Below are positions 824 to 48,506 of a DNA stretch of 64,000 nucleotides, piece after piece. The position numbers were made by a program, and so were the translations under genes. The stretch's first letter is position 1, and each line of letters begins with the position of its first letter. The DNA comes from an uncultured Acidobacteriaceae bacterium (GTDB lineage Bacteria; Acidobacteriota; Terriglobia; Terriglobales; Acidobacteriaceae): the NCBI GenBank assembly GCA_963814015.1, contig CAWFBI010000007.1, forward strand, positions 247,461-311,460, read 5' to 3'. The notes under the pieces were generated by a model. The model was given only the letters and a program-made list of their open reading frames with translations, made no database searches and had not been told where the DNA came from.

Positions 824-879
824 GGCCGCATTTTAACCAGCGTCACCTGGCCTCTAGATGAATCCCCTAGAATGAACCA

Positions 880-1521: not shown

Positions 1522-1711
1522 CACATTAACCAGTTGCAGGCGGTCACGACAATACGATCATTAATAGGGCGGCGCGACAGCGAATCAAAACATTGATAGA
1601 TATACAAGAACCATTAAATGAATAACTTGCACAGCTTCTATAAAGCATTAAATGAATGACACGAAAGTATTAGTAGCAAACTTGAGTCCTCCTTTGCACA
1701 AGGCGTTTCTG

Positions 1712-2875
1712 CTAATGGCCATTAAAATGCTTGCAGAGTGCTTCCACGCCTCCACGGAACTCCTCCGCCGCCGCTAACAGGCTTATTACCAGCCATCCCT
1801 GCCCTGAAAAACCAAAGAAACCGCCAGGGTGCACCACTACTCCGCGCTCCAGCAGTAAAACGAGCGCCGTCTCTTCTCCCGGCTGCAGCCCCGGAACCCG
1901 GAGTACGGCATACCAACCCGCTTCGACTTCAAGCCTGGTCAGCAATGTCTGGCGCAACAGGACAGCGTCGAGCGTTGCCAGGTTCCCTTTTAGGCGCGCC
2001 CTGATTTGCCCTTGCAGCGCCGCTCGCTGGCTAAGCCACGCCGGTAAAGCGCACTGAATTGGAGCATTCATGGAGAGAAAGGTGTCGGAGATGACTTCCA
2101 GGCGCTGCAAGGCGTCGGCTGGGGCAAAACACGCGATCCAGGCGGCCTTCATCTGCGGCAGGGCGGCCACTTTGCTCAGGCCGCTGAGCACAAAGGTGGG
2201 TACGGCATGGCTGCCCGTGGCAAAGCTTTCGCCGCTCTGGTGGCCGCCCAGGTCGTAGTCGAGGAACACCTCGTCCACGACCAGCGCCAAGCCATGTTCC
2301 CGGCACAGTTCTTCAATCGCAGCCCGCGCGGTGGGGCGGGTAAAGTGTCCCGTGGGGTTGTTGGGGTGGACTAGCGCGATGGCCCGCGTGCGCGGTGTCA
2401 CCCGGAGGCGCAGTGCCTCCGGGTCCAGATGCCAGCCATGATCGTAGAAAAGCTCATAGGGAACCAGCCGCACGTCGTCCAACTGAGCCAGGAAATCAAA
2501 CAGGGGGTAGCCGGGCTGGCCGATCAGCACCTCGTCGCCGGGGTCGCAGAGCAGCCGGAAGAGGAAGCTGTAAGCCTCGCTGGTACTGGTGGTGAGAAAG
2601 ATCCGGTCTGCATCTACCGCGGCTCCATGCTCGCGGTAATACAGGCTGACAGCGTCGCGCGCCGGGCGAAGGCCCCGCGGATCCGGCTCGTAACGCAGCG
2701 CCGCCGGGGCGTTGAGGGGGGCCAGAATCGAACCTGCATCGTAAACCAAGCCGCAGCTCGTTGGGTTGGAGGCGGTCAGATCCCATAGCTGGGCGCCAGC
2801 CGCGCGCAATCGAGCAAGCTGCCGCGCCCAGGGTGTTTCCGCCAGATCCCACCGGGTTCGTAGAGACCATCTCAC
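1712..2875 (-). CDS. PLP-dependent aminotransferase (class I/II)
   Basis: 387-aa ORF with HPNNPTG and SGLSK (PLP-lysine) motifs. Confidence 0.85.
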   Translation of the reverse strand: MRWSLRTRWDLAETPWARQLARLRAAGAQLWDLTASNPTSCGLVYDAGSILAPLNAPAALRYEPDPRGLRPARDAVSLYYREHGAAVDADRIFLTTSTSEAYSFLFRLLCDPGDEVLIGQPGYPLFDFLAQLDDVRLVPYELFYDHGWHLDPEALRLRVTPRTRAIALVHPNNPTGHFTRPTARAAIEELCREHGLALVVDEVFLDYDLGGHQSGESFATGSHAVPTFVLSGLSKVAALPQMKAAWIACFAPADALQRLEVISDTFLSMNAPIQCALPAWLSQRAALQGQIRARLKGNLATLDAVLLRQTLLTRLEVEAGWYAVLRVPGLQPGEETALVLLLERGVVVHPGGFFGFSGQGWLVISLLAAAEEFRGGVEALCKHFNGH

Positions 2876-2948
2876 CGGGTTCCCTCCCCTCCTGCATGGT
2901 GTAATAGCGGAAGCATCATCTCATTTTTGCTCGCCGGAGCCCGCACGC

Positions 2949-3587
2949 ATGGATCTGCAAGCCGTGATCTTCGACTACGGAGAAGTTCTCAGCGGACCAC
3001 CCGACCCACAGGCGCATCGCAATCTGCTGGCCATCGCCGGAGTGAAGGAGGAGTCTTTCGAAAAGGCCTATTGGGCCCACCGTCTGGATTACGATGCCGA
3101 CATTTTGAATGGCCAGACTTACTGGCAAACCGTTGCCCGCGACACCGGCGTTCACTTCACGGCACAGCAGATCAACCAACTGATGGAACAGGACGCCATC
3201 ATGTGGATGAACCTGAATCCGGCGATGCTGGCCTGGATCCCCAGGATCAAACAGGCCGGCTTTCGGCTCGGCATCCTGTCAAATATGGGCGACGGAGTGC
3301 TGGACTATTTGCGCCCGCGGTTTCCCTGGCTGGCCCAGTTCGACCACCTCACCTGGTCCTGTGAACTTGGAGTGGTCAAGCCCGATCCTGCCATCTACCT
3401 GCACACGGTAAAGAAGTTGAGCGTCGCCCCCGACCAGGCTCTCTTCATCGATAACCTGGAGAAGAACATCGTCGGCGCGGAGGCCGTCGGGCTGCATGCC
3501 GCTCTGTTCGAAAATGTAGAACAGCTGCAAAGCGATCTGGCGCGGCGAGGATTTCCCCTGCCTCCTCTCGAACCGCATGGTGGTTGA
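2949..3587 (+). CDS. HAD-family hydrolase
   Basis: ATG at 2949 (MDLQAVIFDYGEVL..) gives 212 aa with a HAD motif I-like start and a later SNMGD motif. The longer 2766 start would overlap the divergent aminotransferase. Confidence 0.8.
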   Translation: MDLQAVIFDYGEVLSGPPDPQAHRNLLAIAGVKEESFEKAYWAHRLDYDADILNGQTYWQTVARDTGVHFTAQQINQLMEQDAIMWMNLNPAMLAWIPRIKQAGFRLGILSNMGDGVLDYLRPRFPWLAQFDHLTWSCELGVVKPDPAIYLHTVKKLSVAPDQALFIDNLEKNIVGAEAVGLHAALFENVEQLQSDLARRGFPLPPLEPHGG

Positions 3588-3607
3588 AAACCGCAGGCCT
3601 CTTCCCC

Positions 3608-4765
3608 TCAGCGCGTGCCCGGCTTGGCGACGGTAAGGCCGACCTGGTCCACAATCTCCAGGTTAAAGCCCTGTAGTGCCGGCACATGCGTGGGAGTGTT
3701 CGAGAGCAGTCGAATCTTACGGATATTCAGGTCGGAAAGTATCTGCCCGCCAAGCCCCACCTGGCGCAGAATCCGTTGATGCTCACCGCTGCGTTCTTCC
3801 CGGTGCAGAAAGAGCCGGTGCGGGGTTACGCTGCGGTCAATCTCGAAACCTTTGCTGGTGTTGTGCAGGTAAACCAAGGCTCCCCGTCCAGCTTCGGCGA
3901 TCATCTCGAGCGATCGCTGCACCACCTGGTGGCAGTCGCACAGCGTAGTGCCGAACACATCTCCCGCCAGGCAGTGTGAGTGTACTCGTACCAGGACCGG
4001 TTCCTGGTTGTGCTCCCAACTCACATCGCCGCAAACCAGCGCCAGGTGGCTCTCCCCCCCGTCGACCTCGCTCTCATAAGCGATCATCCGGAAGTCGCCA
4101 AAACGGGTGGGCACAACCGATTCCGCCACGCGGAAGATATAGCGCTCGTTCTGCAGCCGGAAGCGTATTAACTCCGCCACCGTCAGCATTTTCAACTGGT
4201 GCTGATTACAAAACTCCACCAGGTCGGGAACCCGGGCCATGGTCCCGTCGTCGTTCATGATCTCGCAGATCACTCCCGCCGGGATCAACCCCGCCATCCG
4301 CGCCAGGTCGACTGAGGCTTCCGTTTGGCCGGCACGGACCAGCACTCCGCCGCGACGGGCGCGCAGGGGAAAAACGTGGCCTGGCCGCGCCAAATCGGCC
4401 GCCGTCATGCCGGGATCGATTGCGACCCGTATGGTGTGCGACCGGTCGTAGGCTGAGATACCCGTGGTCACACCTTCCCGGGCCTCAATGCTTTCCGTAA
4501 AGGCAGTACCGAAGCGAGACGAATTCTGCTGCGTCATCGGTCCCAGGCGAAGGTAGTCGGCCCGTTCCTCGGTGAGACTGAGACAAATCAGCCCACGCCC
4601 ATGCTTGGACATGAAGTTGATCGCTTCCGGAGTTACAAATTCTGCTGCCAGCGTCAGGTCTCCCTCGTTTTCGCGGTCCTCGTCGTCTACCACGACGATC
4701 ATGCGCCCTGCCTTGAACTCGTCGAGGGCCCCGGATACATCTGTGAATGGCAGCCTTGCCTGCAT
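3608..4765 (-). CDS. ribBA: bifunctional 3,4-dihydroxy-2-butanone-4-phosphate synthase / GTP cyclohydrolase II
   Basis: 385-aa ORF. RibB signature [13 protein letters not shown] at the N-terminus; GTP cyclohydrolase II half ([17 protein letters not shown]) at the C-terminus. Confidence 0.95.
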
Positions 4766-4787
4766 GAATGTATTTTAGTGCAGACGC

Positions 4788-4820
4788 AAAAAACGCCGCT
4801 CAAGGCGGCGTTTTCTTCTC
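4788..4820 (-). terminator. rho-independent terminator of the 4840-5067 gene
   Basis: Minus-strand RNA reads AAAACGCCGC-CUUGA-GCGGCGUUUUUU, a GC-rich hairpin followed by a U6 tract, 20 nt after the stop codon. Confidence 0.8.
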
Positions 4821-4839
4821 TGCGGGATACCCTTCTCAT

Positions 4840-5067
4840 TTACAAGGTGGATTCGATCTCAAAACCCCAAGCCTCGAGAAGCGCTTCCGGGATATACTTC
4901 GAATTCTTGTTGCGCCGGGCCCATTCGCGCAACCGGGTGGAACGCACATACTGATCGGGGGTCAGTTTAAACTCTTTAACTACCTGTTCGAAAGAAGTTA
5001 CGGTCGGGACCACCGGGCCTATCGGCTCCGGCTTGCCCCAGTTAGGATTACCACGTCGTTTTGCCAT
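4840..5067 (-). CDS. small conserved hypothetical protein (75 aa)
   Basis: ORF MAKRRGNPNWGKPEP.. with protein-like composition, no overlap with other genes, and a strong terminator after it. Confidence 0.55.
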   Translation of the reverse strand: MAKRRGNPNWGKPEPIGPVVPTVTSFEQVVKEFKLTPDQYVRSTRLREWARRNKNSKYIPEALLEAWGFEIESTL

Positions 5068-5311
5068 TTGATCCGTTATCCTCTAGGGAGATGAGCAACA
5101 AACATTGCCCAGCGGCTTGGTAAATTCCAGACAGTCGGTCCCGCTGGGACATGTCAAAGCTCTTATTTTAAGGATTTTTTCTCCAGAAATCAATAGCAAA
5201 TTCGGGCTATCCGTGAACTCTTCGCGTGGCCGCGAACCCAACTATCTACTGCAACCTATCCGGTCTCAGTGCACTCCAAGTGGATGACTTATTTGTATTC
5301 GTGAAAGGTGG

Positions 5312-5614
5312 ATGGTCATGAACGTAGTTCGTTACTGGGCGGTTTTCTGTCTCGGGGTAGCCGCGGGTGCCGCAGCGGCTCTCATTTATGCACCGCAGAC
5401 CGGGGAGAAAACCCGTAAGCAACTTAAACGTCACTTTGAGGATGCAAGTGACTACATCAAGGACGCCAGCGACGATCTCAGTAAGCACGCCACCCGGGTC
5501 TACAAACAGACCAGGGACGTGGCCGGCGACGTGGCCTCGCGGGTCAGCTCCGTTGCCGGTAACGTCAGCTCCGCAGCCAGCAACATAGCGGACAAAGTAG
5601 GGGATCTCGTCTAG
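5312..5614 (+). CDS. YtxH-domain protein
   Basis: N-terminal TM helix followed by LIYAPQTGEKTRKQLK and a charged helical tail, typical of YtxH. SD AGGTGG at ~5303; the start may be ATG 5318 rather than 5312. Confidence 0.7.
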   Translation: MVMNVVRYWAVFCLGVAAGAAAALIYAPQTGEKTRKQLKRHFEDASDYIKDASDDLSKHATRVYKQTRDVAGDVASRVSSVAGNVSSAASNIADKVGDLV

Positions 5615-5665
5615 AGCGTTCTCACTCCGTCACCGTTTCGTTTGGCTTCTGCCCCACATCCAGAG

Positions 5666-6958
5666 TTACCCATCTGACACTGCGTTGGCGTCAGATGGGG
5701 TAGCAAGCACTTGCTCCGCCGCGCGATAACCGGAGCGCAGGGCCCCGTGGACCGTGCCCCAATGGCCGCTGGTGTCGGTATGCTCCCCGGCGAAGAAGAG
5801 TGTCTTCTCTACCGGAACCGAGAGCTGATCGGAGGCGTGGATCGCCCCGCGCGGGACATAGGTGTAGGCGCCCAAACTGTGGGTATCCGCCTGCCAGTCG
5901 TGGTGGTGCCAGCGCAGCAGGTGCTTGTGCACATTGTGAAATCTACCGCCGAAAAAGCCGGCGAGCGTCGCCAGGCCGGTCTCCGGCAAACCATCCAACT
6001 TCAGCTCGCTTGCTTTGCGTCCAGCCATCCAGCCGGTCAGCATCGCGGTACGCCTTGGGCTCGTCGTCCACCAGGTCGGGGGAGTGGCCACCGGAGCAAA
6101 GAGAAAACTGACTCCCTCTGGCCAAAGGGCACGGTCAAACTCGTACACCACGCGCGCGGCCGTTCCCATGGCCAGCCTGTCCGCGGCATCGAGAATCTCT
6201 ATCGGTTGCGGCACAAAAGCGACACTTCGAGCCTGCAATACACCCAGGGGCAAGGTGATGATGGCAGCGGAGGCACGGAAGTTGCGGCCGGCCAGGGTTT
6301 TCACTTCGACCCGGCCCGGCTTCCAGGCGATGGTTCGCACTGCAGTCGACACTACCCACTCCCCACCTGCGTCCAGGAACCTGCGTAGCAGAAACTCCGG
6401 GACCCGGGCATAACCTTCCACCACGCGAAACAAACGGTCTCCGGAGATCGCATCTTCGGCGGCCTGTTGTTTCGCGAGCGATAGGATACTGATGCGACTC
6501 GCATCGGCCGCATTGAAGCCTTCGACATAGTTCGTCGCCCAGGCAACGGCCTCCGCCTTGAATCCGCGTTGGGCCACGAATTCTGTGAAGCTGAGGTCCA
6601 CCTGAGGCGGCTCCAGGTGGCCAAGCTCGTCAAACAGCTGCTCCACCTCGCGCCGGTCGCCGCAAGGCTCCAGGCGGCCCACCCCGTTATGCTCGCCGAA
6701 GCAGCGAGTAGCGCCTTCCAGCTCGAAACGGGTGAGGCCCGCCTCATCAATCAGCTGGATTAGCTCCGGAGGCAGTCCGTGCACAAACTCCGCGCCAAGC
6801 TCTACTGGTAACCCACCCTCCACGGCGGGGACGGTGTGTACCCGTCCTCCCACGCGGTCCCGCGCTTCGACCAGCGTCACCCGCAGCCCGGCTTCCGCCA
6901 GCGTTCGGGCGGCTGCCAGTCCGGCGATTCCCGCGCCCACCACGATCACGTCATTCAT
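5666..6958 (-). CDS. FAD-dependent amine oxidase family oxidoreductase
   Basis: Dinucleotide-binding motif [25 protein letters not shown] and C-terminal FFAGEHT. Start taken at MNDV (6958), which gives an 8-nt overlap with the upstream gene's stop. Confidence 0.85.
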
Positions 6959-7730
6959 TGCACCTCCAGGTGAGCGTCTCGGCGCGCGGACCATGCGCAG
7001 ACACCGGATGTTTGAGGGCCCGGATCGACAAAGTACAGCCGGCGCAAACTGCCTCCGGGGTGAAGCGAAGATTTTTGCCCTCGACCTGCATTCTGACCCG
7101 CGGCGCGCTTTTTGCCTGGGGCGACGATGGGTGGGCGAGCGGAAACTCCACTGGGCCGCTCAGCCCACACAAGAGGTAGAGAGACACCAGGTCACAGAAG
7201 CCCAGCGCTGCGGTCCACCGATCCAGATCATCCGCGCTTCCTTCGAGCCTTCGCTGGCGCGATTTCTCAGCCTGGAGAAAACCCTGGTGGTGGGCCTGAT
7301 CCTTTTGGGCGAGCAGGGCGAAATGCCGGCTGACGACCATCGCTCCCGGCTTGGAGATGGCTTCGACAGTATTGATCGAAGCCGTCCATGCCTCTTCTGC
7401 CTCCCTGGGCGGGATGTCAATAAAGGAAACCGGGATCGCATGGCCCGCGTGCGGCCCCCCGGAGCGTAGCCGTTGAATCTGCTGCGCGTCGCTCGCGGCC
7501 CAACCGGTATCGTGCATCTGAATGGCCTGCCGAATCTCAGGGGGCAATTCTCCGAAGCAGGTCACGCACGCGGCTAGTTCTCCCGCCAGTACAGCATGGG
7601 CCGGCTGCGGCACCAGCAGGCAGGGCATGCGCACCTTTCGCTGCGCAGCTTCCACCTGCGCCCAGGCTGAGGCAGCAACCTGCGCCCGGTCATCGCCTTG
7701 CTGTTCTGGTTGTAACCACGCAATCACCAT
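6951..7730 (-). CDS. hypothetical protein, DUF3891-like
   Basis: 259-aa ORF with Q..HA.LAGELA near the N-terminus and an HDTGW motif, as recalled for DUF3891. Overlaps the downstream oxidase start (operon). Confidence 0.55.
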
Positions 7731-7786
7731 TGAATCCTCTTGCCGCCACGGGGGAATTATCAGTTAACCTGACCGGGAGACATCTT

Positions 7787-8530
7787 ATGATCCTTCAAGA
7801 ACCAACAACCGTCGATCTCGACACGCCAACCGGCCCCATGCGCACTTACATGTTTCGCCCCGTGGCCAAGGGAAAATATCCCGCAGTCGTGCTGTTTTCT
7901 GAGATCTTTCAGGCCACCGGTCCTATCCGTCGCTTCGCTGCCTTTATCGCCGGCCACGGCTACATTGTCGCTGTTCCTGAGGTGTATCACGAGCTGGAGC
8001 CGCCCGGAACGGTGCTGGCTTACGACCAGGCCGGGTCCGACAAAGGCAACGCCGACAAGTACGGCAAACCGGTTTCGTCCTATGACAGTGATGCGCGTGC
8101 ACTGCTCGACTATCTTCACACCCTCGAAGATTGCACCGGCCGCCTGGGAGCAATTGGCATCTGTATGGGCGGGCATCTGGCCTTTCGTGCGGCCATGAAC
8201 CCCGATGTACTGGCGACTGTTTGCTTTTATGCGACGGACATTCACAGCCACAGCCTGGGTTTGGGCAAACACGATGATTCGCTGGAGCGGGCGGGTGAAA
8301 TCAAGGGCGAGCTGCTGCATATTTGGGGGCGGCAGGATCCGCATGTTCCGCTCGCTGGCCGCAATCTGATTAAGGCCCGGCTGGACGAGGCAGGCGCGGA
8401 TTTCCAGTGGGTGGAAGTGAACGGTGCCCACGCGTTCATGCGCGATGAAGGCTACCGCTATGATCCAGAGTTGGCGGCGCTGTGTCTGAATATGGCGCTG
8501 GCCCTGCTGCACCGGAAATTGGCCCTGTGA
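7787..8530 (+). CDS. dienelactone hydrolase family protein
   Basis: YPAVVLFSEIF.., nucleophile-region GICMGGHLAF, and C-terminal H in the GAHAF motif. ATG 7787 preferred over 7730. Confidence 0.85.
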   Translation: MILQEPTTVDLDTPTGPMRTYMFRPVAKGKYPAVVLFSEIFQATGPIRRFAAFIAGHGYIVAVPEVYHELEPPGTVLAYDQAGSDKGNADKYGKPVSSYDSDARALLDYLHTLEDCTGRLGAIGICMGGHLAFRAAMNPDVLATVCFYATDIHSHSLGLGKHDDSLERAGEIKGELLHIWGRQDPHVPLAGRNLIKARLDEAGADFQWVEVNGAHAFMRDEGYRYDPELAALCLNMALALLHRKLAL

Positions 8531-9504
8531 CCGATCAAGTGCTTAAGGAAATACCCCCAAAGGCCCCCGAAGATCCATCGAGCGATCTGGGATTCGGCCG
8601 GGTCGTCTCCGAGCAGCGGCAGCTGCGCCTGCTCAATCGGGACGGCAGCTTCAATGTGCAACGAAGAGGCCGCGGGCTGCATGCATTTCTGGCCTACTCC
8701 AACCTGGTCAGCACTAGCTGGGACCGGTTCTTCCTCTTTGTCGCCGTCGCGTACCTTACGCTCAATGGCTGTTTCGCTTTGCTTTATGACGCTGTCGGAG
8801 CGGGCGGCCTGGTCAACACCATCGATACCGGCATTAATACTCCTTTCCTGAAGGCCTTCTTCTTCAGCATTCACACCTCGGCAACCATCGGCTACGGAAG
8901 TACTGTGCCCGTGGGACTGGCAACCAACATCCTGGTAGCGATCGAGTCCGTCGTCAGTCTGCTGGGCCTGGCGGTGGTTACGGGGCTGGTGTTCGCGCGT
9001 TTTTCCCGTCCGGTCGCCGACATTCTCTTCAGTCAAAAAGCAGTGATGTCGTGGATCGGCACCCGTCGCGCTTTTGAGTTCCGCATTATCAACACTCGCA
9101 ACAACCAGATCATCGATCTTCATGTGCGGGTCCTGGTGTCGCGCTTTGAACCCAACGCAAGCGGAACCATGGTGCGCCGCTACTACCCGCTTAGCCTGGA
9201 GCGGGAAAGCGTAGTCTTCTTTCCCCTCTCCTGGACGATCGTTCACGTGATCGATAAAGATAGCCCGCTGTTCGGAGTCACGGAAGAAGAGTTGTGCGCC
9301 AGTGGCGCGGAGTTTTTGATTTTGCTTACGGGAATGGACGAGACTTTTTCCCAGGTCGTCAATGCCCGGTCATCGTATCGCGCCAACGAAGTTATCTGGG
9401 ACGCGAAGTTCACCGACATCTTCGTGTACGACCCGGAAGGCAGAATGGCGGGCATTGACATGAAACGCTTCCACGACACGGCGCGTATTTCCAATCAGCC
9501 CTAG
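8482..9504 (+). CDS. inward-rectifier (KirBac-type) potassium channel
   Basis: Two TM helices flank a pore with the selectivity filter TIGYG (SATIGYGS), followed by a Kir-type cytoplasmic beta-rich domain. Alternative GTG start at 8527 overlaps the upstream stop (GTGA). Confidence 0.85.
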   Translation: MSEYGAGPAAPEIGPVTDQVLKEIPPKAPEDPSSDLGFGRVVSEQRQLRLLNRDGSFNVQRRGRGLHAFLAYSNLVSTSWDRFFLFVAVAYLTLNGCFALLYDAVGAGGLVNTIDTGINTPFLKAFFFSIHTSATIGYGSTVPVGLATNILVAIESVVSLLGLAVVTGLVFARFSRPVADILFSQKAVMSWIGTRRAFEFRIINTRNNQIIDLHVRVLVSRFEPNASGTMVRRYYPLSLERESVVFFPLSWTIVHVIDKDSPLFGVTEEELCASGAEFLILLTGMDETFSQVVNARSSYRANEVIWDAKFTDIFVYDPEGRMAGIDMKRFHDTARISNQP

Positions 9505-9679
9505 CAATGGACCGTGGAAAAGAAACAGCAGGTCCACTGCGCTACGCCACTTCCCGCAAAAAGATTCGTCATCCCGTCGGAGTGGTGATGAGCCTGCGGC
9601 CCCCCGAAGGGGATGAGAAACGCCTTCTGTTCAATAACCGCTTTCCATGGATGCGTCGCCCTCTCCTTTGTCATCCCGA

Positions 9680-9787
9680 CCCGGATTTCCTGCCACGCAG
9701 CACTGGACAAAGCCGCGTGTGCACCTTTCCCTTAAGGAAAGGCGCATGAGGTCCACCAGTGCCACCAATCTCAACAGGAAATCCGGG
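9680..9787 (+). repeat. 108-bp palindromic unit with 13-bp terminal inverted repeats (copy A1)
   Basis: CCCGGATTTCCTG at 9680-9692 and CAGGAAATCCGGG at 9775-9787 are perfect reverse complements. The interior is imperfectly self-complementary around CCTTAAGG (9730-9737). Confidence 0.85.
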
Positions 9788-9853
9788 GGACCGAAGCGGA
9801 GGAATCTGCAGTTCAGCCGACCTTTCTTGGAAATGTTTTTTCGACGGAGCGTA

Positions 9854-9960
9854 CCCGGATTTACTGCCACGCAGCACTGGACAAGGCCAGGTGAGCGGCG
9901 CTCCTTAAAGAGAACCGCATGAAGTTCGTCAATGCCGTCAACCTCGACAGGAAATCCGGG
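9854..9960 (+). repeat. 107-bp palindromic unit with terminal inverted repeats (copy A2)
   Basis: CCCGGATTTACTG at 9854-9866 and CAGGAAATCCGGG at 9948-9960 (12/13 complementary). The interior is homologous to A1, B1 and B2. Confidence 0.85.
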
Positions 9961-10021
9961 GTAGCGCAGTGATCCTGCTGTTTCTTTTCCCCTGGTCCCC
10001 TACTCAATCACCGCCTGTTCT

Positions 10022-38590: not shown

Positions 38591-38910
38591 AAAGAAACGG
38601 AAGTAACACCTTTTCGCCATTGCCGGCTCTGGGCGCCAAAGGCAGACTCCCAAATAGCAGCATGCTCTCCCTCCTTTGGGTGCGCCGGCCAAGTCGATAC
38701 ATCTTTCCACGTCGAAAGATATCGCTCGGATGTCACGCGCGGCGGCTTTTCTATGCGCACCCCTTCTATCCTTAAAATTGGCGGTTTCCGGCAGGGAAAT
38801 CTTATGCGCGTATTTATGACCTGCGGATAGATCATCGAGTCCCGGCATATGCCGGGACCCCTGAAATTAGCCCAGCACGCAGTGCTGGTTATCGGATCAA
38901 CCGTCCCTTC

Positions 38911-40380: not shown

Positions 40381-42696
40381 GTGCGCATTTTCACCCGCTA
40401 CATCTGGCATGAAGTGCTCTCGCACGCCCTCCTTGGCGGTGCGCTCTTCACCTTCATCCTGTTCATGAAGTATCTCGGGCAACTGTTGGAGATGGCAGCG
40501 CGCAACAGCGCGTCGCTGGGCAGCGTGGCCAAGATTTTTCTGTTCATGCTGCCTAATATTCTGAGCTTCACGATTCCCATGGCGGTGCTGGTCGGGGTCC
40601 TGCTCGGCCTCAGCCGGCTGGCTGCCGACAGTGAAATTACCGCCATGCGGGCGGTGGGAATTGGCGTCTGGTTCTTTGTCCGCGTAGTCTCAGCAATCGC
40701 CATCGTTGGCTGGGGAATATCGCTGGCCGATTCGCTCTACGTCGCTCCCAGGGCAACCGCCGCGTTATTGAATATCGAGAGCTCGCTTAAAGATCAGCAG
40801 GCCTCATTTCAAGTGGAGCCGCGCGTCTTCTATGAAGACTTCAAGAACTACGTGCTGTACGTGCAGGATATCCGCGCCGGCACAGGAGCCTCGCGATGGC
40901 AGCGCATCTTCCTCGCCGACCTGAGCGACCCGGTCGCGCCCAAGATCACCACGGCCGAGGAAGCGGTCGTTGCCGACAGCGGTGCTCACACCATCCTGAT
41001 GCGTCTGCGCAATGGAACCGAGCACGACATGGTAAGCACCAACGGGGCTCCCCAATACCAGGTTTCCACCTTCGTGGAGTCGGAACTCCCCCTGACCATT
41101 GGCACCCAGGAAGATGCGCACATCGGCCACAATGACACCCCTATTCTTGCCATGGGCAACCGGGTGCTCTATGAGCGCACCAAGGGGCCGGGGGGCAAAC
41201 CTTACCTGATCGAACTCAATAAGCGGTTCGCCTACCCATCGGCCTGCCTGGTCCTGATGCTGATCGGTATTCCCCTCGGCCTCTCCTCGCGGCGCGGCGG
41301 CAAAAGCGCCGGCTTTGTGGTGACCATCGCACTGGTCTTCATTTACTACTTCCTCTCCATGACTGGCACTTCGCTCGCTCGCGAGGGTAAAGTCCCTGTT
41401 TTTGCCGGCGTATGGGCGGCAAATATCCTATTTGCCTTTTTCGGCCTGCTGCTGCTGCGGCAAATGGCGGTCGGGGGATCGGTGGGCACCCAGCTCGCCG
41501 CTATGGTCAGCAAATTCAAAAGCACGCAGCTGCTGAGCCCCAGGCTTGAGCGCAGCACGGGAGAGCGCACCGCCCACGAACGCGGGCGTTTTCCACTCAT
41601 TCTCGACGACTATGTGCTGCGCGAGTTTCTCACCACCTTTTGTCTGGTCCTGGTCAGTTTCGTTCTGCTAATGCTGGTATTTACCTTCTTTGAGCTGCTC
41701 GGCGACATCATCCGCAACCGTACTCCGCTGGTTACAGTCGGCGAATATCTCATCAACCTCACACCCAGCATGCTTTACAACATCACCCCTTTGGGGGTGC
41801 TGGTTGCGGTGCTGGTCACGTTTGGCGTGCTCACCCGAACCAACGAATTTACCGCCATGAAGGCTACCGGCATCAGCTTGTACCGGGTGATGGTTCCCAT
41901 CCTGGTGATATCGGCATTGATCGCCGTCGCCCTTTTCCTTTTCGATGAGTCCTATCTTCCCGGCGCCAACCGGAGGCAGGAGGCTCTGCGCAGCGTCATC
42001 AAAAACAGACCGGCGCAAACCTTTCTACGGCCCGACCAGAAGTGGATCTTCGGGCGGCAGGAGCCTGGGAAGCCCGGCCGCATTTTCTATTACCAGTTCT
42101 TCGATCCGGACCAGGACCGCTTCGCCAATCTAACCGTCTTCGAATTCAACCCGGAGAATTTTTCTCTTTCCCGCCGCATCTTCGCCACCAGCGTCCACTG
42201 GGAGCCACAATTGCAGCAATGGGTCTTTGAACACGGGTGGGAACGCCGCTTCGATGGCGAAGCCGTTAGCAGTTATAGCCAGTTCAGTGTCGAAGGCTAT
42301 CCGGAAATAGGCGAGGGGCCGCAATACTTCAAGAAGGAAGACCTGCAATCGAAAGAGATGACCTTCGGTGAGCTGGAGCGCTACATCCGCGACTTAAGGC
42401 AGAGCGGCTTCGACACAAAAAAACTCAGCGTTCAGCTGAATCTGAAGCTTGCCTATCCGCTCGTAACCCTGGTGATGGCGGTGCTGGCGATTCCTTTTGC
42501 CTTGTCCATGGGCAAACGCGGCTCCCTGACCGGCATAGCCACCGCCATAGGAGTGGCAATCGCTTACTGGTTCGTGGAGCTTACCTTTCAAGCCCTGGGA
42601 GACGTTAATTTTCTGCCCACGCTGCTGGCGGCCTGGTCGCCTGACCTGCTCTTCGGCCTCGCCGGAGCTTACCTGCTGCTGCGCACGCCTACCTAG
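40381..42696 (+). CDS. lptFG: fused LptF-LptG LPS export permease (two YjgP/YjgQ domains)
   Basis: 771 aa with a GTG start. The first permease module starts MRIFTRYIWHEVL.. and the second starts at about aa 400 (LILDDYVLREFLTTF..). Each has three TM helices, a periplasmic domain, then three TM helices. Confidence 0.8.
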   Translation: MRIFTRYIWHEVLSHALLGGALFTFILFMKYLGQLLEMAARNSASLGSVAKIFLFMLPNILSFTIPMAVLVGVLLGLSRLAADSEITAMRAVGIGVWFFVRVVSAIAIVGWGISLADSLYVAPRATAALLNIESSLKDQQASFQVEPRVFYEDFKNYVLYVQDIRAGTGASRWQRIFLADLSDPVAPKITTAEEAVVADSGAHTILMRLRNGTEHDMVSTNGAPQYQVSTFVESELPLTIGTQEDAHIGHNDTPILAMGNRVLYERTKGPGGKPYLIELNKRFAYPSACLVLMLIGIPLGLSSRRGGKSAGFVVTIALVFIYYFLSMTGTSLAREGKVPVFAGVWAANILFAFFGLLLLRQMAVGGSVGTQLAAMVSKFKSTQLLSPRLERSTGERTAHERGRFPLILDDYVLREFLTTFCLVLVSFVLLMLVFTFFELLGDIIRNRTPLVTVGEYLINLTPSMLYNITPLGVLVAVLVTFGVLTRTNEFTAMKATGISLYRVMVPILVISALIAVALFLFDESYLPGANRRQEALRSVIKNRPAQTFLRPDQKWIFGRQEPGKPGRIFYYQFFDPDQDRFANLTVFEFNPENFSLSRRIFATSVHWEPQLQQWVFEHGWERRFDGEAVSSYSQFSVEGYPEIGEGPQYFKKEDLQSKEMTFGELERYIRDLRQSGFDTKKLSVQLNLKLAYPLVTLVMAVLAIPFALSMGKRGSLTGIATAIGVAIAYWFVELTFQALGDVNFLPTLLAAWSPDLLFGLAGAYLLLRTPT

Positions 42697-42717: not shown

Positions 42718-44484
42718 ATGCTTGCCACGCTCCGGCCGCTTTTCCCATATCTGCGCCGCTATCGCCGTGACTTTGTCTGGGGCGGATTGTCCGTCGTGAT
42801 CTCGAATGTGATCTGGATCTTTTTCCCCCAGGTCATTCGCATCGCCATCGACGACCTGAACCACGGCGTCACCCGGCAAAAGATTTTCCTCTACGCCGCG
42901 CTGCTGGTAGCCATTTCCTTCGCCAAGGGTGTCTTCCTCTTCCTCACCCGCTGGATCATCATCGGCATTTCTCGCGAAATTGAGTTTGACCTGCGCAACG
43001 ACCTCTTCCGCCACCTGGAGCGGCAGCCCGCAGCTTACTTCCAGCAACATCGAACCGGCGACATCATGGCCCGCATGACCAACGACCTGAATGCAGTGCG
43101 CATGCTGCTGGGTCCGGCCATTATGTACAGCGCCAACACCGTCCTGTTTTCCATCGGCGCTTTGTATTTCCTGCTCCGCATCAGCCCCTGGCTGACCCTG
43201 GTAGCCCTGGTCCCGTTGCCCCTGGTCAGCGTCCTCGTACAGGTTCTGGGGCGCAAGATTCATGAACGCTTCGAGCGCATTCAGGCGATGTACTCCGAGA
43301 TCTCGGCGCAAGCCCAGGAGAACTTTTCCGGCGCCCGCCTGGTCCGCGCCTTTGCCCAGGAAGAAGCCCAGATTGCCGCCTTTGAACGATCCAATAAAGA
43401 GAATATCCGCCGCGGCCTCCGCCTGGTTCAGCTCATGGGAATGCTGTGGCCGACGCTCGAATTCGTGCTCGGACTTGCCCTGGCCATTACCCTGCTGGTG
43501 GGCGGCCATGAGGTGCTTTCCCACCGCATCAGCATCGGTGATTTTGTTGCCTTCAATACCTATATGGTGATGCTCACCTGGCCGGTCATCGCCCTGGGCT
43601 GGGTAGTAAACCTGTGGCAACGGGGCACCGCTTCGGTAGTGCGCATCGATGAGTTGCTGTCCGACAAGCCAGCCATCGACGATGCCGAGGCTGACCCCAC
43701 CCTTTCAGCCGATCTGAAACTGCGTGGCGACATCGAGTTTCGCAACCTCGACTTTTCCTACTCCGGCTCGGACTCCGGCCGCGCAGAGGTGCTGCATTCG
43801 CTGTCGCTCAAGATTCCGGCCGGCAGCAGTCTTGCCATCGTGGGCCCGACCGGCTCTGGAAAATCGACCCTGGTCAGCCTGATCCCTCGGCTGTATGACG
43901 CCGCCCCGGGAGCCGTTCTGATCGACGATCACCCCATCCGCGATTATCCTCTCGCCCTCTTGCGCTCGAACATTGGCTTCGTTCCCCAGGAGACCTTTTT
44001 ATTCAGTCAGACCATCCGTGGAAATATCGCTTTTGGCGCTCCCTGGGCTACCGATAGCCAGGTTCTTGAGGCCGCCGAAGCCGCGCACATTCGCCGCGAA
44101 TTTGAAGAATTTCCCGCCGGCCTGGCCACCCCCGTCGGTGAGCGCGGCGTCACCCTTTCCGGCGGCCAAAAACAGCGCACCGCGATTGCCCGCGCCGTCA
44201 TCCGCAACCCCCGCATCCTGATCCTCGACGACGCTTTGTCCAGCGTCGACACCTATACCGAGGAGCAGATCCTGGGCGAACTGCAGCGCGTGATGCAGGG
44301 CCGCACTACCTTGTTCATCTCCCACCGCATATCCACCGTCCGCCATGCGGACCAGATTGCCGTGCTGGTGGCCGGCCGCATCGTGGAGCTGGGCACGCAC
44401 GATGAGTTGCTCGCCAGGAACGGCTATTACGCGGATCTGTTCCAGAAGCAGCTGCTCGAAGAAGAGCTGGCAATCACCCACTGA
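42718..44484 (+). CDS. ABC exporter, fused TMD-NBD (MsbA-like lipid flippase)
   Basis: 588 aa with six TM helices, then Walker A GPTGSGKST, signature LSGGQKQR and Walker B ILILDDA. Lies 22 nt downstream of lptFG. Confidence 0.85.
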   Translation: MLATLRPLFPYLRRYRRDFVWGGLSVVISNVIWIFFPQVIRIAIDDLNHGVTRQKIFLYAALLVAISFAKGVFLFLTRWIIIGISREIEFDLRNDLFRHLERQPAAYFQQHRTGDIMARMTNDLNAVRMLLGPAIMYSANTVLFSIGALYFLLRISPWLTLVALVPLPLVSVLVQVLGRKIHERFERIQAMYSEISAQAQENFSGARLVRAFAQEEAQIAAFERSNKENIRRGLRLVQLMGMLWPTLEFVLGLALAITLLVGGHEVLSHRISIGDFVAFNTYMVMLTWPVIALGWVVNLWQRGTASVVRIDELLSDKPAIDDAEADPTLSADLKLRGDIEFRNLDFSYSGSDSGRAEVLHSLSLKIPAGSSLAIVGPTGSGKSTLVSLIPRLYDAAPGAVLIDDHPIRDYPLALLRSNIGFVPQETFLFSQTIRGNIAFGAPWATDSQVLEAAEAAHIRREFEEFPAGLATPVGERGVTLSGGQKQRTAIARAVIRNPRILILDDALSSVDTYTEEQILGELQRVMQGRTTLFISHRISTVRHADQIAVLVAGRIVELGTHDELLARNGYYADLFQKQLLEEELAITH

Positions 44485-44525
44485 TCACCTTGACACCTGG
44501 CGAAATTCAGGTTCAGGATTGTGGG

Positions 44526-44603
44526 CGTGGTGAAGGAGTTCACCGTTAACCGCTGTGCGGCTTTCTCCGCACAGATGATGACTCCTGACAGGGTTTCTGT
44601 CGG
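44526..44603 (+). promoter_or_regulatory. candidate fluoride riboswitch (crcB-motif-like aptamer plus downstream hairpin)
   Basis: P1 GGUG/CACC encloses the loop AAGGAGUU. Then junction GUUAACCGC, 8-bp hairpin 44553-44574, and tail AUGAUGACUCCUGAC whose ACUCC pairs with the loop GGAGU. Three deviations from the recalled consensus. DUF190 gene downstream. Confidence 0.5.
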
Positions 44604-44637
44604 TTGAGTCACTCACGCAGCGACGGAATCCCGAAAA

Positions 44638-46794
44638 GTGAAAAATGGCAAGGGTACGACTACCTTTTGCGCCGTGATGCGGACGAGGATAGAGATGAAT
44701 GCGCCCGGCGGAAACCGCGAATCACAACCCGAGACCGCCTTGAACGACGCGCAGCGCCTTCGGCTAAGCGTGAGTTGCCGATACATCGATCGACTGCTTG
44801 GCGAGATGGATAAGATCCTGCACGCGGCAGGGTCTCAGTCACCCTTCGACAAGTACATCGTGGATATTACCCCGGCGCAGACCAGGGTGCTCGAGGATTA
44901 CATCCATCGTCTTCGCGGCCAGCTACTTCGTTCCCTCGCATGGCAGCAGCTGGAGCCCGACGCCCCTACGATTCCTGTTACCCATGCCATTCTCACTCAC
45001 CTGTCTTTCATCGATATTGCGGTCGAAGAACTTCGCCCTCGTCATATGCGCGGATCCGGCGCCGTCAATGACCATGTCGCCGGCGAACTGAACGGCGTGG
45101 TCCATGAACTACGCTCACTGCTCGAGGCCATGAACCGTTACCTGCGCCAGGAGATGGGAACCAGTCTGGAGGCACGCCTCGAACGCCTCCAGCAAGTGGG
45201 CACGGATATTACGCTGCTGCAAACAACCTCCCAAATCATCACCCGCCACGGAATGGTTGAATTTCGCGGACGTCTCGAAGCATTAGCCTCACGTCTGGAA
45301 GACCGCAGTTTCGAGATTGCTTTCTTTGGTCGAGTGAGTTCAGGCAAGTCATCGCTGCTGAATGCTTTGCTCGGCAGGGAAATTCTGCCCGTCGGGGTCA
45401 ACCCGATAACGGCCGTGCCGACCAGGCTGCGATCTGGTCTCAACTCCCGGGCAATTATGACCTTCGCCAATGGGCACAGCGAGGAAATCCCCCTGAACGA
45501 ACTCGCTCGCTTTGTAACCGAGGAAGGCAATCCGGGAAACACGCGCAATGTGATCCGAGCCGTAGTCGAAATTCCATCACCCAGGCTTGAACAAGGAATC
45601 GTGTTGGTAGACACCCCCGGCCTTGGTTCCCTGGCAAAACGGGGCGCAGGCGAGACCCTGGCCTATCTGCCATCGGCTGATCTGGGTGTCTTGCTAGTGG
45701 ACGCGGGCACAACGCTCAGCGAGGAAGATATCGGTACTCTGCGCCTGCTCTACGAGGCAGGAATTCCGTCGCTTGTCTTGCTCAGTAAGGCCGACCTGCT
45801 GCAAGCGAAGGATCTCGAGAGCGCTCTCGCCTACATCAGCGGCAATCTTCAACAGCAGCTTGGTATCAATCCGACAGTCCATCCGGTAAGTGCGTTGCCC
45901 AGTCATTGGGCGTTGCTCGATAGTTTTTACCAGACCGACTTGCTGCCGCGATTCGGTCGCTCAACCAGCCTACGGAATGAATCGGCCGGTCGGAAAATCG
46001 TAGCTTTGCGCGAGGCGGTGATTGCGGCCATAGAAACCGTGCTGGATCGCAGTGGGCGGCGGGATAACCTGAACCGCACCAGGCTTGACGAACTGGAAGC
46101 AAAACTCAGGCGTTCGATTGGTGTAATCGGCGAGCAGCCGCGCGTCTTTGAGCACGACCTGCTGCTGGTTGAAGAGGGCTGTGATCGAGCCCTGTCCCAT
46201 CTGGCTGAATTAAGCTTGCGATGGACACGGAGCACGGGCGAAACGGACATTGCTCCACTGCAAATTTCTGAGTGGGTAGACGCGTTCGTTCAGGATCAGC
46301 TTAAGGAGCCGATTCGGCGTCTGCGGGAAACATCGGAAGAGGCGATCCACGTAATGCAACAGATTGCCACCACCCTGGATGCTCCTGATGCGCCGGCAGT
46401 GACTGAGATCGAGCTGCTCTTACGAGACCTGCCGCGTTTCGAACTTGCTGCATTAACGAATTCCGTAAGCGTCGGTCACTGGACTCTGCTTGGGGAGAGG
46501 ATGGCGGTCTCACGAATGCGCTCGCAGCTCAAAGAGCAACTCGAGACCATCCTGAGAGATCAATTTCGTGCGTACGGTCGCGTTCTTAATCGATGGATTG
46601 ACCGCACGACGCGTAGCCTGGAGCGGCTTGTAAGCTCCTACGCAGACGGCTACCGGGTGCAGATTCAGCGCCTCGCGGGACACACGGACGAGTCTCTCGA
46701 CATGGAGCAGCTTCGGCTGGATTTGGCTCTCTTGTTACGGCCATCGAAAATCGGCCACTCGCCCGGCGCCGTTAATATTGCCCGGTGCTGCTAA
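44638..46794 (+). CDS. bacterial dynamin-like GTPase
   Basis: G1 GRVSSGKSS, G3 DTPGLGS, G4 SKAD, with long helical regions on both sides. The likely real start is ATG 44695 (SD GAGGA five nt upstream) rather than GTG 44638. Confidence 0.85.
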   Translation: MKNGKGTTTFCAVMRTRIEMNAPGGNRESQPETALNDAQRLRLSVSCRYIDRLLGEMDKILHAAGSQSPFDKYIVDITPAQTRVLEDYIHRLRGQLLRSLAWQQLEPDAPTIPVTHAILTHLSFIDIAVEELRPRHMRGSGAVNDHVAGELNGVVHELRSLLEAMNRYLRQEMGTSLEARLERLQQVGTDITLLQTTSQIITRHGMVEFRGRLEALASRLEDRSFEIAFFGRVSSGKSSLLNALLGREILPVGVNPITAVPTRLRSGLNSRAIMTFANGHSEEIPLNELARFVTEEGNPGNTRNVIRAVVEIPSPRLEQGIVLVDTPGLGSLAKRGAGETLAYLPSADLGVLLVDAGTTLSEEDIGTLRLLYEAGIPSLVLLSKADLLQAKDLESALAYISGNLQQQLGINPTVHPVSALPSHWALLDSFYQTDLLPRFGRSTSLRNESAGRKIVALREAVIAAIETVLDRSGRRDNLNRTRLDELEAKLRRSIGVIGEQPRVFEHDLLLVEEGCDRALSHLAELSLRWTRSTGETDIAPLQISEWVDAFVQDQLKEPIRRLRETSEEAIHVMQQIATTLDAPDAPAVTEIELLLRDLPRFELAALTNSVSVGHWTLLGERMAVSRMRSQLKEQLETILRDQFRAYGRVLNRWIDRTTRSLERLVSSYADGYRVQIQRLAGHTDESLDMEQLRLDLALLLRPSKIGHSPGAVNIARCC

Positions 46795-46803
46795 GGAGGT
46801 TTT

Positions 46804-47562
46804 ATGCTGAAGCCCGGAAAAGCCCTCAAGGTCTCGATCTACTTGAGCGAAGGTGACACCCACCATGGCGTGCCTATTTATGCCAGCATCCTCGATTACC
46901 TCTTTTTTCGAGGCGTCTCCGGCGCGACCGTGTTGAAAGGTGTTGCCGGCTTTGGCGCCGATCATCGCCTGCACAGCTCCAGCTACGTCGAGATCTCGGA
47001 TAAACTGCCTCTCAAGATCGAGTTCATTGAGGCCGAGCAAAAGGTCGAAGAGCTGCTCGGCAGATTAGAAGAGATGGCTGGAAACGGTTTGATCGAAGTC
47101 CAGGAAACTAAAATCGTGAAGCCATCACTCCCCACCAGGCACAAGGCTGGTAAGGCTCAAGCGGCGGTCAGGATTGAAGGCAAGGCCAAACTGATGCGCA
47201 TTTACATTGGAGAAGACGATCGATGGAATGACAAACCGCTTTACAAGATGCTGGTCGAAGCAATGAGGGCAAATGATCTTGCCGGGGCGACGGTTTATCG
47301 CGGCATCCTCGGATACGGGGCGCATCGCAGGGTCCACCGCGACAAGCCTTTTCATATGTCCCATGACGCATCGATAATGCTCTCGGTGGTGGACACAGAA
47401 GAGAAGATTCGGAGCTTTCTGCCCGTACTGGAGCGAATGGTTCAGGAGGGATTGATTGTGCTTTCGGACGTAGATGTGGTGAAGTATTCGCACCGCCCTA
47501 TCCATGCGGACGAAAGCGATGGGGGCACTGCACCTGAATCCTTACCGCACAATCAATTTTGA
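46804..47562 (+). CDS. tandem DUF190 (COG1993, PII-like fold) protein
   Basis: Two ~105-aa repeats, each with the (I/V)Y.GE.D...GKPLY..L......G..GATV.RG..G(F/Y)G pattern recalled from single-domain DUF190 proteins. SD AAGGAGG overlaps the dynamin stop codon. Confidence 0.85.
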   Translation: MLKPGKALKVSIYLSEGDTHHGVPIYASILDYLFFRGVSGATVLKGVAGFGADHRLHSSSYVEISDKLPLKIEFIEAEQKVEELLGRLEEMAGNGLIEVQETKIVKPSLPTRHKAGKAQAAVRIEGKAKLMRIYIGEDDRWNDKPLYKMLVEAMRANDLAGATVYRGILGYGAHRRVHRDKPFHMSHDASIMLSVVDTEEKIRSFLPVLERMVQEGLIVLSDVDVVKYSHRPIHADESDGGTAPESLPHNQF

Positions 47563-47840
47563 GAGCAGGTTTGCGCGTCTCTCCGGGCAATGGTCTCCTC
47601 GATCGCGGAGATCAACGACCATCAATTTAGTCGGCTGGAGGGCGACTTCGTCTGGCGCCATCACCCGAACACGGACAAGACGTTTCATTGTTCTCGACGG
47701 TCGTCTGAGGATCGACTTCAGAGATGGCGCGGTTGACTTGTTCTCAAGTGCTGGGCTGATGAGGACTTTAGAGCGTGCCTGATAAGCGGAGCAGCCCGTG
47801 AAGGCCGTAGCGATGAATGTGCTGCAATTAGACTTCGGGT
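47519..47840 (+). pseudogene. decayed small cupin-domain gene
   Basis: Motifs of the ~110-aa cupin family are spread over several frames: TINFESRFARLSGQWSP in frame a, IAEINDHQFSRLEGDFVWRHHPNTDKTF in frame b, IVLDGRLRIDFRDGAVDL in frame a, then weak VPDKR..QPVKAVA..VLQLDFG remnants. Confidence 0.5.
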
Positions 47841-48506
47841 ATGAGCGACTACCATCACTTCCGCGACGATTTGCCGAATGAACCACCCGTTCGTGGATTC
47901 CTGCATCGCCCGGCCGATGCGATCGGCGATTGGCTTGTCTTGACCCATGGTGCGGGCGCAAACTGTAATGCCCCGCTCCTCGTAGCGCTGGCAGATGCGT
48001 TCTCCGCGTCGGGGTTGAATGTCCTTCGCTGCGATCTCCCCTTTCGCCAATTGCGACCCCACGGGCCGCCACCACGCGGCAGTGCAGAACGCGACCAGCA
48101 GGGGCTCTCTGCGGCCGTTGCCTCCGTAAGGCGACAGAGTTCGGGCCGTACGTTCCTGGGGGGTCATTCCTACGGAGGAAGGCAGGCGTCGATGCTGGCC
48201 GCTGATGAACCAGGTCTGGTTGATTGTCTACTGCTGCTCTCCTACCCGCTCCATCCGCCCCAACGGCCGGGTGAGCTACGCACCGCGCACTTCCCGCGAC
48301 TGCAAACCCCAGCGCTATTCGTGCACGGTGCACGCGATGGCTTCGGTTCCACCGATGAGTTGGGAGCGGCGCTAAAGCTTATCCCTGCACGAACGGAGCT
48401 GCTAACAGTTACTGGTGCCGGCCACGAACTCCTCACCAGGAAAAATCGTGATGAGTTACCGGGGACGGTGGTGGAGACGTTTCGGTCATTTGCCGCTGTG
48501 GTTTGA
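47841..48506 (+). CDS. alpha/beta-fold hydrolase (COG3571-like)
   Basis: 221 aa with LVLTHGAGAN, GGHSYGGRQAS and FVHGARDGFG motifs. Confidence 0.8.
   Translation: MSDYHHFRDDLPNEPPVRGFLHRPADAIGDWLVLTHGAGANCNAPLLVALADAFSASGLNVLRCDLPFRQLRPHGPPPRGSAERDQQGLSAAVASVRRQSSGRTFLGGHSYGGRQASMLAADEPGLVDCLLLLSYPLHPPQRPGELRTAHFPRLQTPALFVHGARDGFGSTDELGAALKLIPARTELLTVTGAGHELLTRKNRDELPGTVVETFRSFAAVV

Follow-up and report, generated by a model that had tools for sequence, protein, structure and literature searches.

A fluoride riboswitch in the leader of a dynamin-like GTPase/DUF190 operon of an Acidobacteriaceae bacterium, with a predicted two-helix expression platform

A 64,000-nucleotide stretch of DNA from an uncultured Acidobacteriaceae bacterium (GenBank assembly GCA_963814015.1, contig CAWFBI010000007.1, positions 247,461 to 311,460), referred to as the "window" in this study, carries an element at 44520-44594 (+) that, judged from its sequence, is a real fluoride riboswitch and a member of the known crcB family of RNAs. 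It lies in the leader of an operon encoding a dynamin-like GTPase (GTP1) and a DUF190 protein. The best overall explanation, to which we assign a probability of roughly 0.88, is that a functional Mg-F aptamer (44529-44585) serves as an ON switch for the GTPase/DUF190 transcript. Family membership points to fluoride as the probable ligand, and the modelled helices suggest the ON polarity. What goes beyond an ordinary member of the family is the placement in front of dynamin and DUF190 genes, an expression platform of two helices without a U-tract, and the use of aptamer variants that score close to or under the Rfam threshold.

When the window was scanned against all 4227 Rfam families (cmscan), RF01734 (fluoride riboswitch, crcB motif) matched at 44520-44594 (+) with 37.7 bits and an E-value of 7.3e-7, computed on the whole 64 kb, and with model positions 1-64 of 64 covered. 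The gathering score of this family is 34 bits, and no other family exceeded its own gathering score in the window; a looser scan yielded nothing further of relevance. A preliminary description of this DNA, made from the letters alone, had likened the element to the crcB/fluoride riboswitch and had proposed this covariance-model check. The identification holds, as the curated gathering score was passed, orthologous leaders carry the same element, and fluoride-regulon genes are present in the orthologous operons. The aptamer alone folds with -24.7 kcal/mol (z -3.1), and the testable defining features of RF01734 are all found in the window RNA, save for a non-consensus base at 44534. As the model is short (64 positions) and the score modest, it could be argued that an unrelated GC-rich intergenic hairpin region scored against RF01734 by chance. 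However, the E-value of 7e-7 over the whole window, the conservation and covariation among orthologues, and the fluoride-regulon gene context all speak against this, and chance resemblance is effectively refuted.

The core of the aptamer (44529-44585, +) begins with P1, in which GGUG (44529-32) pairs with CACC (44541-44) and encloses the 8-nt loop AAGGAGUU (44533-40). The junction GUUAACCG (44545-52) leads into P3, an 8-bp hairpin formed by CUGUGCGG (44553-60) and CCGCACAG (44567-74) around the loop CUUUCU, and then comes the tail AUGAUGACUCCUGAC (44575-89), of which 44575-80 is the linker. Five Watson-Crick pairs are possible between ACUCC (44581-85) in this tail and GGAGU (44535-39) in the P1 loop, giving the pseudoknot. 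At the base of P3, the Rfam alignment places a non-canonical G44552-A44575 pair. The pocket nucleotides GAUGG, AACCGC and UGAUGA are present except for a U to A change at 44534, and A44533 and U44576 are complementary, while sister classes carry U and A at these positions. On direct inspection, the coordinates and sequences previously given for P1, its loop, the hairpin, the tail, the pseudoknot, TTGACA, CAGGAT and a second hairpin were all found to be accurate. The junction had been written as GUUAACCGC, which is right apart from its final C; that C is 44553, the first base of the hairpin, so the junction is GUUAACCG. Deviations from the family had been listed as well. The "extra nucleotide" before the pseudoknot strand vanishes in the Rfam alignment, where it is absorbed as G44552-A44575, and CCUGAC in place of CCUAC is harmless, since the tail past the pseudoknot is unconserved in the family model.

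A query with the GTPase brought up 5 GTDB-genome loci (from Acidobacteriaceae metagenome-assembled genomes and from isolate TAA 166, which is locus L004) and 80 metagenome loci, mostly from peat or soil; all are close relatives only. RF01734 matches above gathering lie immediately 5' of the orthologous GTPase gene in the three closest genomes (L001, L002 and L005), and matches below gathering (31 and 19 bits) lie 5' of the GTPase gene in two distant GTDB genomes. A custom covariance model, built from six of the relatives' aptamers and run over 770 kb, gave 164 matches. An aptamer was located no more than 260 nt upstream of the GTPase gene in 81 of the 84 assessable loci, a count that overstates the number of independent events because related peat samples contributed many near-duplicate loci; most loci hold two or three aptamers. 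Across 112 distinct aptamers, 98.3% of the cells in the helices are paired, as compared with 33-57% when the partners are slid, and two-sided changes occur in 2 of the 4 P1 pairs and in 5 of the 6 P3 pairs. The pseudoknot pairs are 97.5% paired across homologues, but all five are near-invariant, as is usual for the fluoride riboswitch family, and therefore provide no covariation evidence. Thus, the comparison of orthologous leaders that had been suggested earlier reveals compensatory changes in P1 and P3, but only conservation without covariation in the pseudoknot.

The aptamers of these relatives fall into different classes. Class I aptamers, the window's included, have a long P3 and the tail AGAUGAUGACUCCUGACAGG. 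Class II aptamers have a P3 of 4 bp, the loop GUUGG, and an A in place of the U before GAUGA; with RF01734 they score 19-31 bits (gathering 34) or are missed altogether. A compact class II variant (GGUGUUGGAGUCCACC...GGGCAGAUGACUCCUCG) lies just 5' of the GTPase gene in L003 (3920-3998), L012 (3876-3955) and about 60 other loci, and its pseudoknot strand exactly complements the Shine-Dalgarno (SD) sequence plus start codon, GGAGGAGUCAUG. The position after the 5' strand of P1 and the position before GAUGA are 100% complementary in the 112 distinct aptamers (AU in 60, UA in 51 and UG in 1). In the window this is the pair 44533/44576, which we take to be the reversed Watson-Crick tertiary pair A6-U38 of the crystal structure. 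The base following GA in the P1 loop is A in 18, C in 12, G in 15 and U in only 1 of 46 distinct class I sequences, and for this reason GAAGG is a lineage trait and not damage. The A at 44534 had correctly been noted before as a departure from GAUGG, but it is no oddity, as the position varies throughout the lineage. For comparison, the 2010 crcB alignment has GAUGG in 294 of about 320 occurrences (U in about 90%), with GAAGG in 5, GACGG in 11 and GAGGG in 6 (PMC2864571). This lineage evidently uses aptamer variants, with a swapped tertiary pair or a non-U base in GAUGG, that score at or below the Rfam threshold.

One might suppose from such a base that the element descends from a fluoride riboswitch yet no longer binds fluoride, and persists as a constitutive leader structure or as a sensor of another ligand. 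This would agree with a score just 3.7 bits over gathering, with a non-consensus base where about 90% of the 2010 alignment has U, with a GTPase operon that has no exporter gene, and with a rearranged locus (a cupin pseudogene is present and a single-DUF190 gene has been lost). However, four distinct close genomes show almost no variation in the aptamer, in the GAAUCCC motif or in the downstream helix described below as hairpin A, while the flanking sequences have diverged, which indicates purifying selection. Moreover, the non-U variants (46 distinct sequences with A18/C12/G15/U1) head Na+/H+ exchanger-Usp-enolase operons, which ties this variant class to the classic fluoride regulon. In the Thermotoga petrophila crystal structure of Ren and colleagues from 2012, the equivalent of position 44534 reportedly contacts the Mg-F cluster by its phosphate and not by its base. 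A decayed or re-purposed aptamer is consequently regarded as very improbable.

Upstream of the aptamer, a -35 box, TTGACA (44490-44495, +), is invariant in six close leaders. These are the leaders of what we call the window clade (the window, L001, L002 and L005-L007). A -10-like hexamer, CAGGAT (44514-44519, +), follows after an 18-nt spacer and is likewise invariant in this clade, together with the surrounding block GGTTCAGGATTG. In nearly all of about 55 distinct related leaders, TTGAC[A/T] is found at an equal distance 5' of P1, and in the related class I leaders a -10-like hexamer lies 17-18 nt after this box, being of the TAnnnT type at the position of CAGGAT. A generic consensus promoter scan did not pick up CAGGAT. 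The constant position of TTGAC[A/T] supports the earlier guess that TTGACA and CAGGAT would be the promoter of the riboswitch transcript. With the promoter so placed, the aptamer would be at the extreme 5' end of the mRNA, with transcription starting a few bases before P1.

Downstream, the pseudoknot strand is contested by a helix that we call hairpin A (44579-44611, +). It pairs 44579-91 with 44597-611 (13 pairs and one 2-nt bulge at 44604-05), has -16.6 kcal/mol (z -3.4), resembles a terminator stem, and covers the entire 3' strand of the pseudoknot. The second hairpin reported before (44585-91 / 44597-603) does exist and does overlap the tail of the aptamer, but it is merely the inner part of this longer helix. 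In 50 distinct leaders, the homologous helix is 95% paired vs 37-48% when slid, with one covarying pair (G-C/G-U/A-U). No U-tract follows hairpin A, the next sequence being ACUCACGCAG, and a consensus scan found no terminator-like site there; the reservation voiced in the preliminary description on this point was justified. A canonical intrinsic terminator was consequently rejected. Canonical terminators are also unenriched in this genome region (19 found vs 17.5 expected).

Hairpin B (44591-44632, +; -19.4 kcal/mol, z -2.6) is an alternative helix in which GGG-UUCUGUCG (44591-602) pairs with CGACGGAA-CCC (44621-32), and it contains the conserved GAAUCCC motif; AUCCC(UG) is kept in all class I leaders. 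Hairpins A and B are mutually exclusive. As the minimum free energy fold of 110 nt picks hairpin B, hairpin A can matter only kinetically, and the folding models suggest that hairpin B might take part in the switch. The rest of the leader (44633-44694, +), which includes the SD sequence GAGGA at 44685-89, is weakly conserved in the alignment of the six close leaders; conservation gives out near 44633, which leaves some 50 nt up to the SD. A leader peptide (MSRxxP*) was also considered, as it could start at the GGAGUCAUG that lies at the end of hairpin A in related leaders. This was rejected: neither frame nor length is conserved, indels change the spacing by numbers of bases not divisible by three, and this start codon is missing from the window clade.

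These features are consistent with the following scheme. The transcript from the TTGACA/CAGGAT promoter would carry the aptamer (44529-44585) at its 5' end and encode the dynamin-like GTPase and the tandem DUF190 protein, possibly the hydrolase too. When fluoride is absent, the pseudoknot 3' strand GACUCC would be captured by the downstream GAGUC within hairpin A (44579-44611). When fluoride is present, the pseudoknot with the P1 loop would lock this strand, hairpin A would be incomplete, and hairpin B (44591-44632) would form. Hairpin A might act, with RNA polymerase still a short way downstream of it, as a non-canonical terminator without a U-tract. Alternatively, hairpin A might leave the C-rich segment 44611-44633 free for Rho, and hairpin B would hide this segment in the bound state. 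Since hairpin A overlaps the pseudoknot strand, conservation ends at about 44633, and modelled SD access is unchanged, an ON switch would most likely be decided during transcription. We consider a transcriptional output step somewhat favoured; an effect on RNA stability or on some other step is rather unlikely.

Fluoride could instead govern ribosome access to the GTPase start (SD at 44685-89, ATG at 44695) by a relay of helices, from the pseudoknot through hairpins A and B to a downstream partner. The class II aptamers lend some weight to this idea, as they precede the same GTPase gene in most other loci and are clearly translational in design: AUGACUCCUC, their pseudoknot strand, is fully complementary to GAGGAGUCAU(G), which comprises the SD plus start codon, and modelled SD access in their leaders rises from 0.17 to 0.45-0.68 when the pseudoknot strands are blocked. 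The lack of a U-tract after hairpin A would also fit, and a relay through hairpin B is sterically possible. However, the SD in the window clade lies 50-100 nt past the conserved block, in unconserved sequence, and the switch region yielded no SD-complementary partner. By RNAfold partition functions, in which the pseudoknot strands were blocked, SD access is 0.48 vs 0.51 in the window (free vs bound); SD/start access is unchanged between states in L001 and L005 as well, and in L002 it changes in the wrong direction. With no complementarity and unchanged access, direct SD sequestration in the window was rejected, and translational control by any route appears unlikely. The class II aptamers share with the window's the family, the regulated gene and the pseudoknot strand, but differ in the 4-bp P3, the GUUGG loop, the A before GAUGA and the direct sequestration of SD and start codon.

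The preferred reading, an ON switch decided during transcription, has precedents. Terminators that share sequence with the crcB motif have been described, an arrangement by which the bound ligand increases expression (PMC2864571). In the transcriptional crcB riboswitch of Bacillus cereus (PMC11077080, PMC8004769), the pseudoknot 3' strand is shared with a downstream hairpin, as here, and the ligand blocks that hairpin during transcription; in B. cereus, however, a U-tract completes a canonical intrinsic terminator. Since no U-tract follows hairpin A, an output by termination would have to be non-canonical or factor-dependent. Compared with the family as a whole (RF01734; Weinberg et al. 2010, PMC2864571), the window RNA has the same 8-nt P1 loop with GGAGU, AACCGC, a variable P3, the GAUGA linker and the ACUCC pseudoknot; it likewise lies in a 5'-UTR (untranslated region), has a competing hairpin over the pseudoknot strand, and has crcB, enolase, Na+/H+ antiporter and Usp genes in orthologous loci. 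It differs in the A for U in GAUGG, an 8-bp P3 with a G-A mismatch at its base, a competing hairpin that lacks a U-tract and precedes a conserved alternative helix, and a dynamin-like GTPase as first gene in an operon without an exporter.

Several points weigh against a functional fluoride switch in the window. The RF01734 score exceeds gathering by 3.7 bits only, and the highly conserved U of GAUGG is an A (44534). The pseudoknot has no covariation support, its pairs being near-invariant, and hairpin A has a single covarying pair, with much of its support coming from sequence conservation among related genomes; moreover, the helix ends without a U-tract or any terminator-like site. The 81/84 linkage count is inflated by the near-duplicate loci from related peat samples. 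There is no fluoride exporter in the GTPase operon or in the 64-kb window, where tblastn with the CrcB of L004 and with the E. coli CrcB sequence found no CrcB.

The gene context in the relatives bears on this question. Most related loci share a common island, in which a first unit consists of a class I aptamer followed by a Na+/H+ exchanger, Usp and enolase, and a second unit consists of a class II aptamer followed by dynamin 1, CrcB, a cysteine-rich protein of 200 aa, a tandem DUF190, a single DUF190 and dynamin 2; a further aptamer often lies after dynamin 2. The arrangement is reduced in the window clade, where a class I aptamer is followed by dynamin 1, a tandem DUF190, a single DUF190 and a hydrolase; in the window variant, a frameshifted cupin fragment stands in place of the single DUF190. 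CrcB, enolase, the Na+/H+ exchanger and Usp are found in the orthologous operons and islands, while in the window itself the aptamer is followed by the GTPase, DUF190 and hydrolase genes only. The flanking genes differ (Lpt/MsbA in the window vs amine oxidase/cupin in the relatives), and the riboswitch and operon have been kept together. The dynamin-like GTPase pair, DUF190 and the cysteine-rich protein may, on an evenly balanced judgement from gene order, form a fluoride-riboswitch-controlled module around CrcB in Acidobacteriaceae, of which the window would hold a stripped-down version.

The multi-riboswitch islands of L008-L085, typically at locus coordinates 600-10000, hold up to four aptamers in 10 kb. 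They also carry divergent minus-strand genes (DUF211, metallophosphoesterase and unknown proteins). The soluble cysteine-rich protein of about 200 aa (for example at L051 6399-6995 and L026 6345-7028) has the motifs CPFCRF...CNFH.W...CDxC and no Pfam match; in the islands it always lies between CrcB and the tandem DUF190, and it is absent from the window.

The first gene of the window operon, GTP1 (44695-46794, +), encodes 699 aa with a Dynamin_N domain (1.2e-24; 87.7 bits vs a cutoff of 27), in agreement with the earlier call of a dynamin-like GTPase. Its likeliest start is ATG 44695, behind GAGGA (44685-89), and the 699-aa product in public records is identical. The motifs G1 (GRVSSGKS), G3 (DTPG) and G4 (SKAD) are present, and the protein has an N-terminal extension, about 170 residues long, that is helical and conserved; a Kyte-Doolittle scan found no hydrophobic segment. 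By sequence, the closest solved relatives in the PDB are IniA (7e-18), the Campylobacter dynamin-like proteins DLP1/2, the Nostoc bacterial dynamin-like protein (BDLP) and mitofusins. An AlphaFold model (AF2; mean predicted local distance difference test, pLDDT, of 72.9) matches IniA with E 1.7e-16 over 591 columns, and BDLP too. These matches identify GTP1 as a bacterial dynamin-like protein. The inducers of IniA are cell-wall antibiotics, and fluoride is not known to be among them. GTP1 shares the Dynamin_N domain and a helical stalk with IniA (6j72), Nostoc BDLP (2j68) and Campylobacter DLP1/DLP2 (5owv), but differs from them in its N-terminal extension, in its riboswitch control and in its fluoride-response neighbours. 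As is usual for BDLPs, which are paired, a second dynamin gene partners the GTP1 ortholog in most related loci. An anti-phage dynamin system was considered and rejected: PADLOC gave only short and weak matches to LeoA/LeoBC (32-41 bits over the GTPase domain), and the neighbours are fluoride-response genes.

The second gene (46804-47562, +), 10 nt after GTP1, had been recognized as DUF190 before, and this proved to be so. It encodes a tandem DUF190 protein of 252 aa with two P-II-like domains (PF02641 4.8e-64; 213 bits vs 23.4 gathering, in two stretches) and with PDB matches to 2dcl and 1o51. DUF190/UPF0166 proteins (PF02641; 2dcl, 1o51) have this P-II-like fold, but in the window protein two such domains are fused. 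Following this gene is a frameshifted and truncated cupin pseudogene (47534-47740, +), with 82% nucleotide identity to L001 3373-3590 and a tblastn match (7e-15) that is interrupted by a change of frame. The 3' end of the tandem-DUF190 open reading frame (ORF) extends into this pseudogene, which occupies the place of the relatives' single DUF190 gene and thereby marks a local rearrangement. No remnant of a single-DUF190 gene was found in the gap 47563-47840, which holds the cupin pseudogene instead. The matching cupin gene lies directly 5' of the riboswitch in L001, L002 and L007. A possible ORF of 48 aa (MKRLVRVRVMAPDEVALQPTKLMVVDLRDRGDHCPERRANLLSKLIVR) at 47542-47690 (-), in the gap between DUF190 and hydrolase genes and antisense to the cupin fragment, is probably spurious. 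After a 278-nt gap from DUF190 comes an Abhydrolase_11 alpha/beta hydrolase gene (47841-48506, +; Pfam 2.9e-32), which is the last operon gene in close relatives and, in L001/L005, shares sequence with the end of the single DUF190 gene.

Riboswitch regulons have repeatedly exposed the roles of unknown genes, and the crcB and CLC-F exporters were found in this way. The physiological roles of bacterial dynamin-like GTPases are still poorly defined, and DUF190 proteins have been solved structurally, with, to our knowledge, a function demonstrated for no member. One link of DUF190 to fluorine is the gene flJ in the fluorometabolite cluster of Streptomyces cattleya (bioRxiv 10.1101/2022.03.08.483453); DUF190 genes also follow CrcB in the related islands. 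According to a 2024 review of fluoride resistance (PMC11139923), riboswitch-associated genes include those for exporters, Na+/H+ antiporters, pyrophosphatase, HAD phosphatases, enolase and formate hydrogen lyase, and gene classes of the orthologous islands are among them. Full-text searches found no literature joining fluoride riboswitches with dynamin or DUF190, and an earlier mention in the gene lists of Baker et al. 2012 is possible; the papers returned for a fluoride riboswitch with a GTPase, or for bacterial dynamin-like proteins with fluoride, appeared unrelated by title and abstract. The placement of dynamin and DUF190 genes under what appears to be fluoride-riboswitch control is conserved and apparently unreported.

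The RNA adds little by itself, and its value is as a pointer to gene function. The linkage to the GTPase and DUF190 genes, kept in dozens of Acidobacteriaceae loci from soil and peat beside CrcB, enolase and Na+/H+ exchangers, yields a testable hypothesis. If it is true, dynamins and DUF190 proteins would act in fluoride/HF (hydrogen fluoride) stress, for example in membrane repair, in control of the Fluc channel or in buffering the poisoning of GTPases by metal fluorides. They would constitute a new class of effectors in the fluoride regulon and provide the first physiological handle on both protein families. The multi-aptamer islands, with natural variants of the fluoride pocket and two expression platforms for one gene, should be useful for studies of riboswitch mechanism.

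Minor observations concern the surroundings of the operon. Upstream of the riboswitch, the window encodes an apparently fused LptF/LptG lipopolysaccharide-export permease as a single 771-aa ORF (40381-42696, +) and an MsbA-like ABC exporter (42718-44484, +) that ends just upstream of the riboswitch promoter. In L002, three strong Acido-Lenti-1 RNAs (RF01687), which score 53, 51 and 42 bits, lie around the riboswitch operon at 3463-3508 (-), 3620-3664 (+) and 7475-7522 (-). In the window, an Acido-Lenti-1 match at 38838-38889 (-), about 5.6 kb upstream of the riboswitch, is sub-threshold, with 25 bits vs a gathering score of 37.

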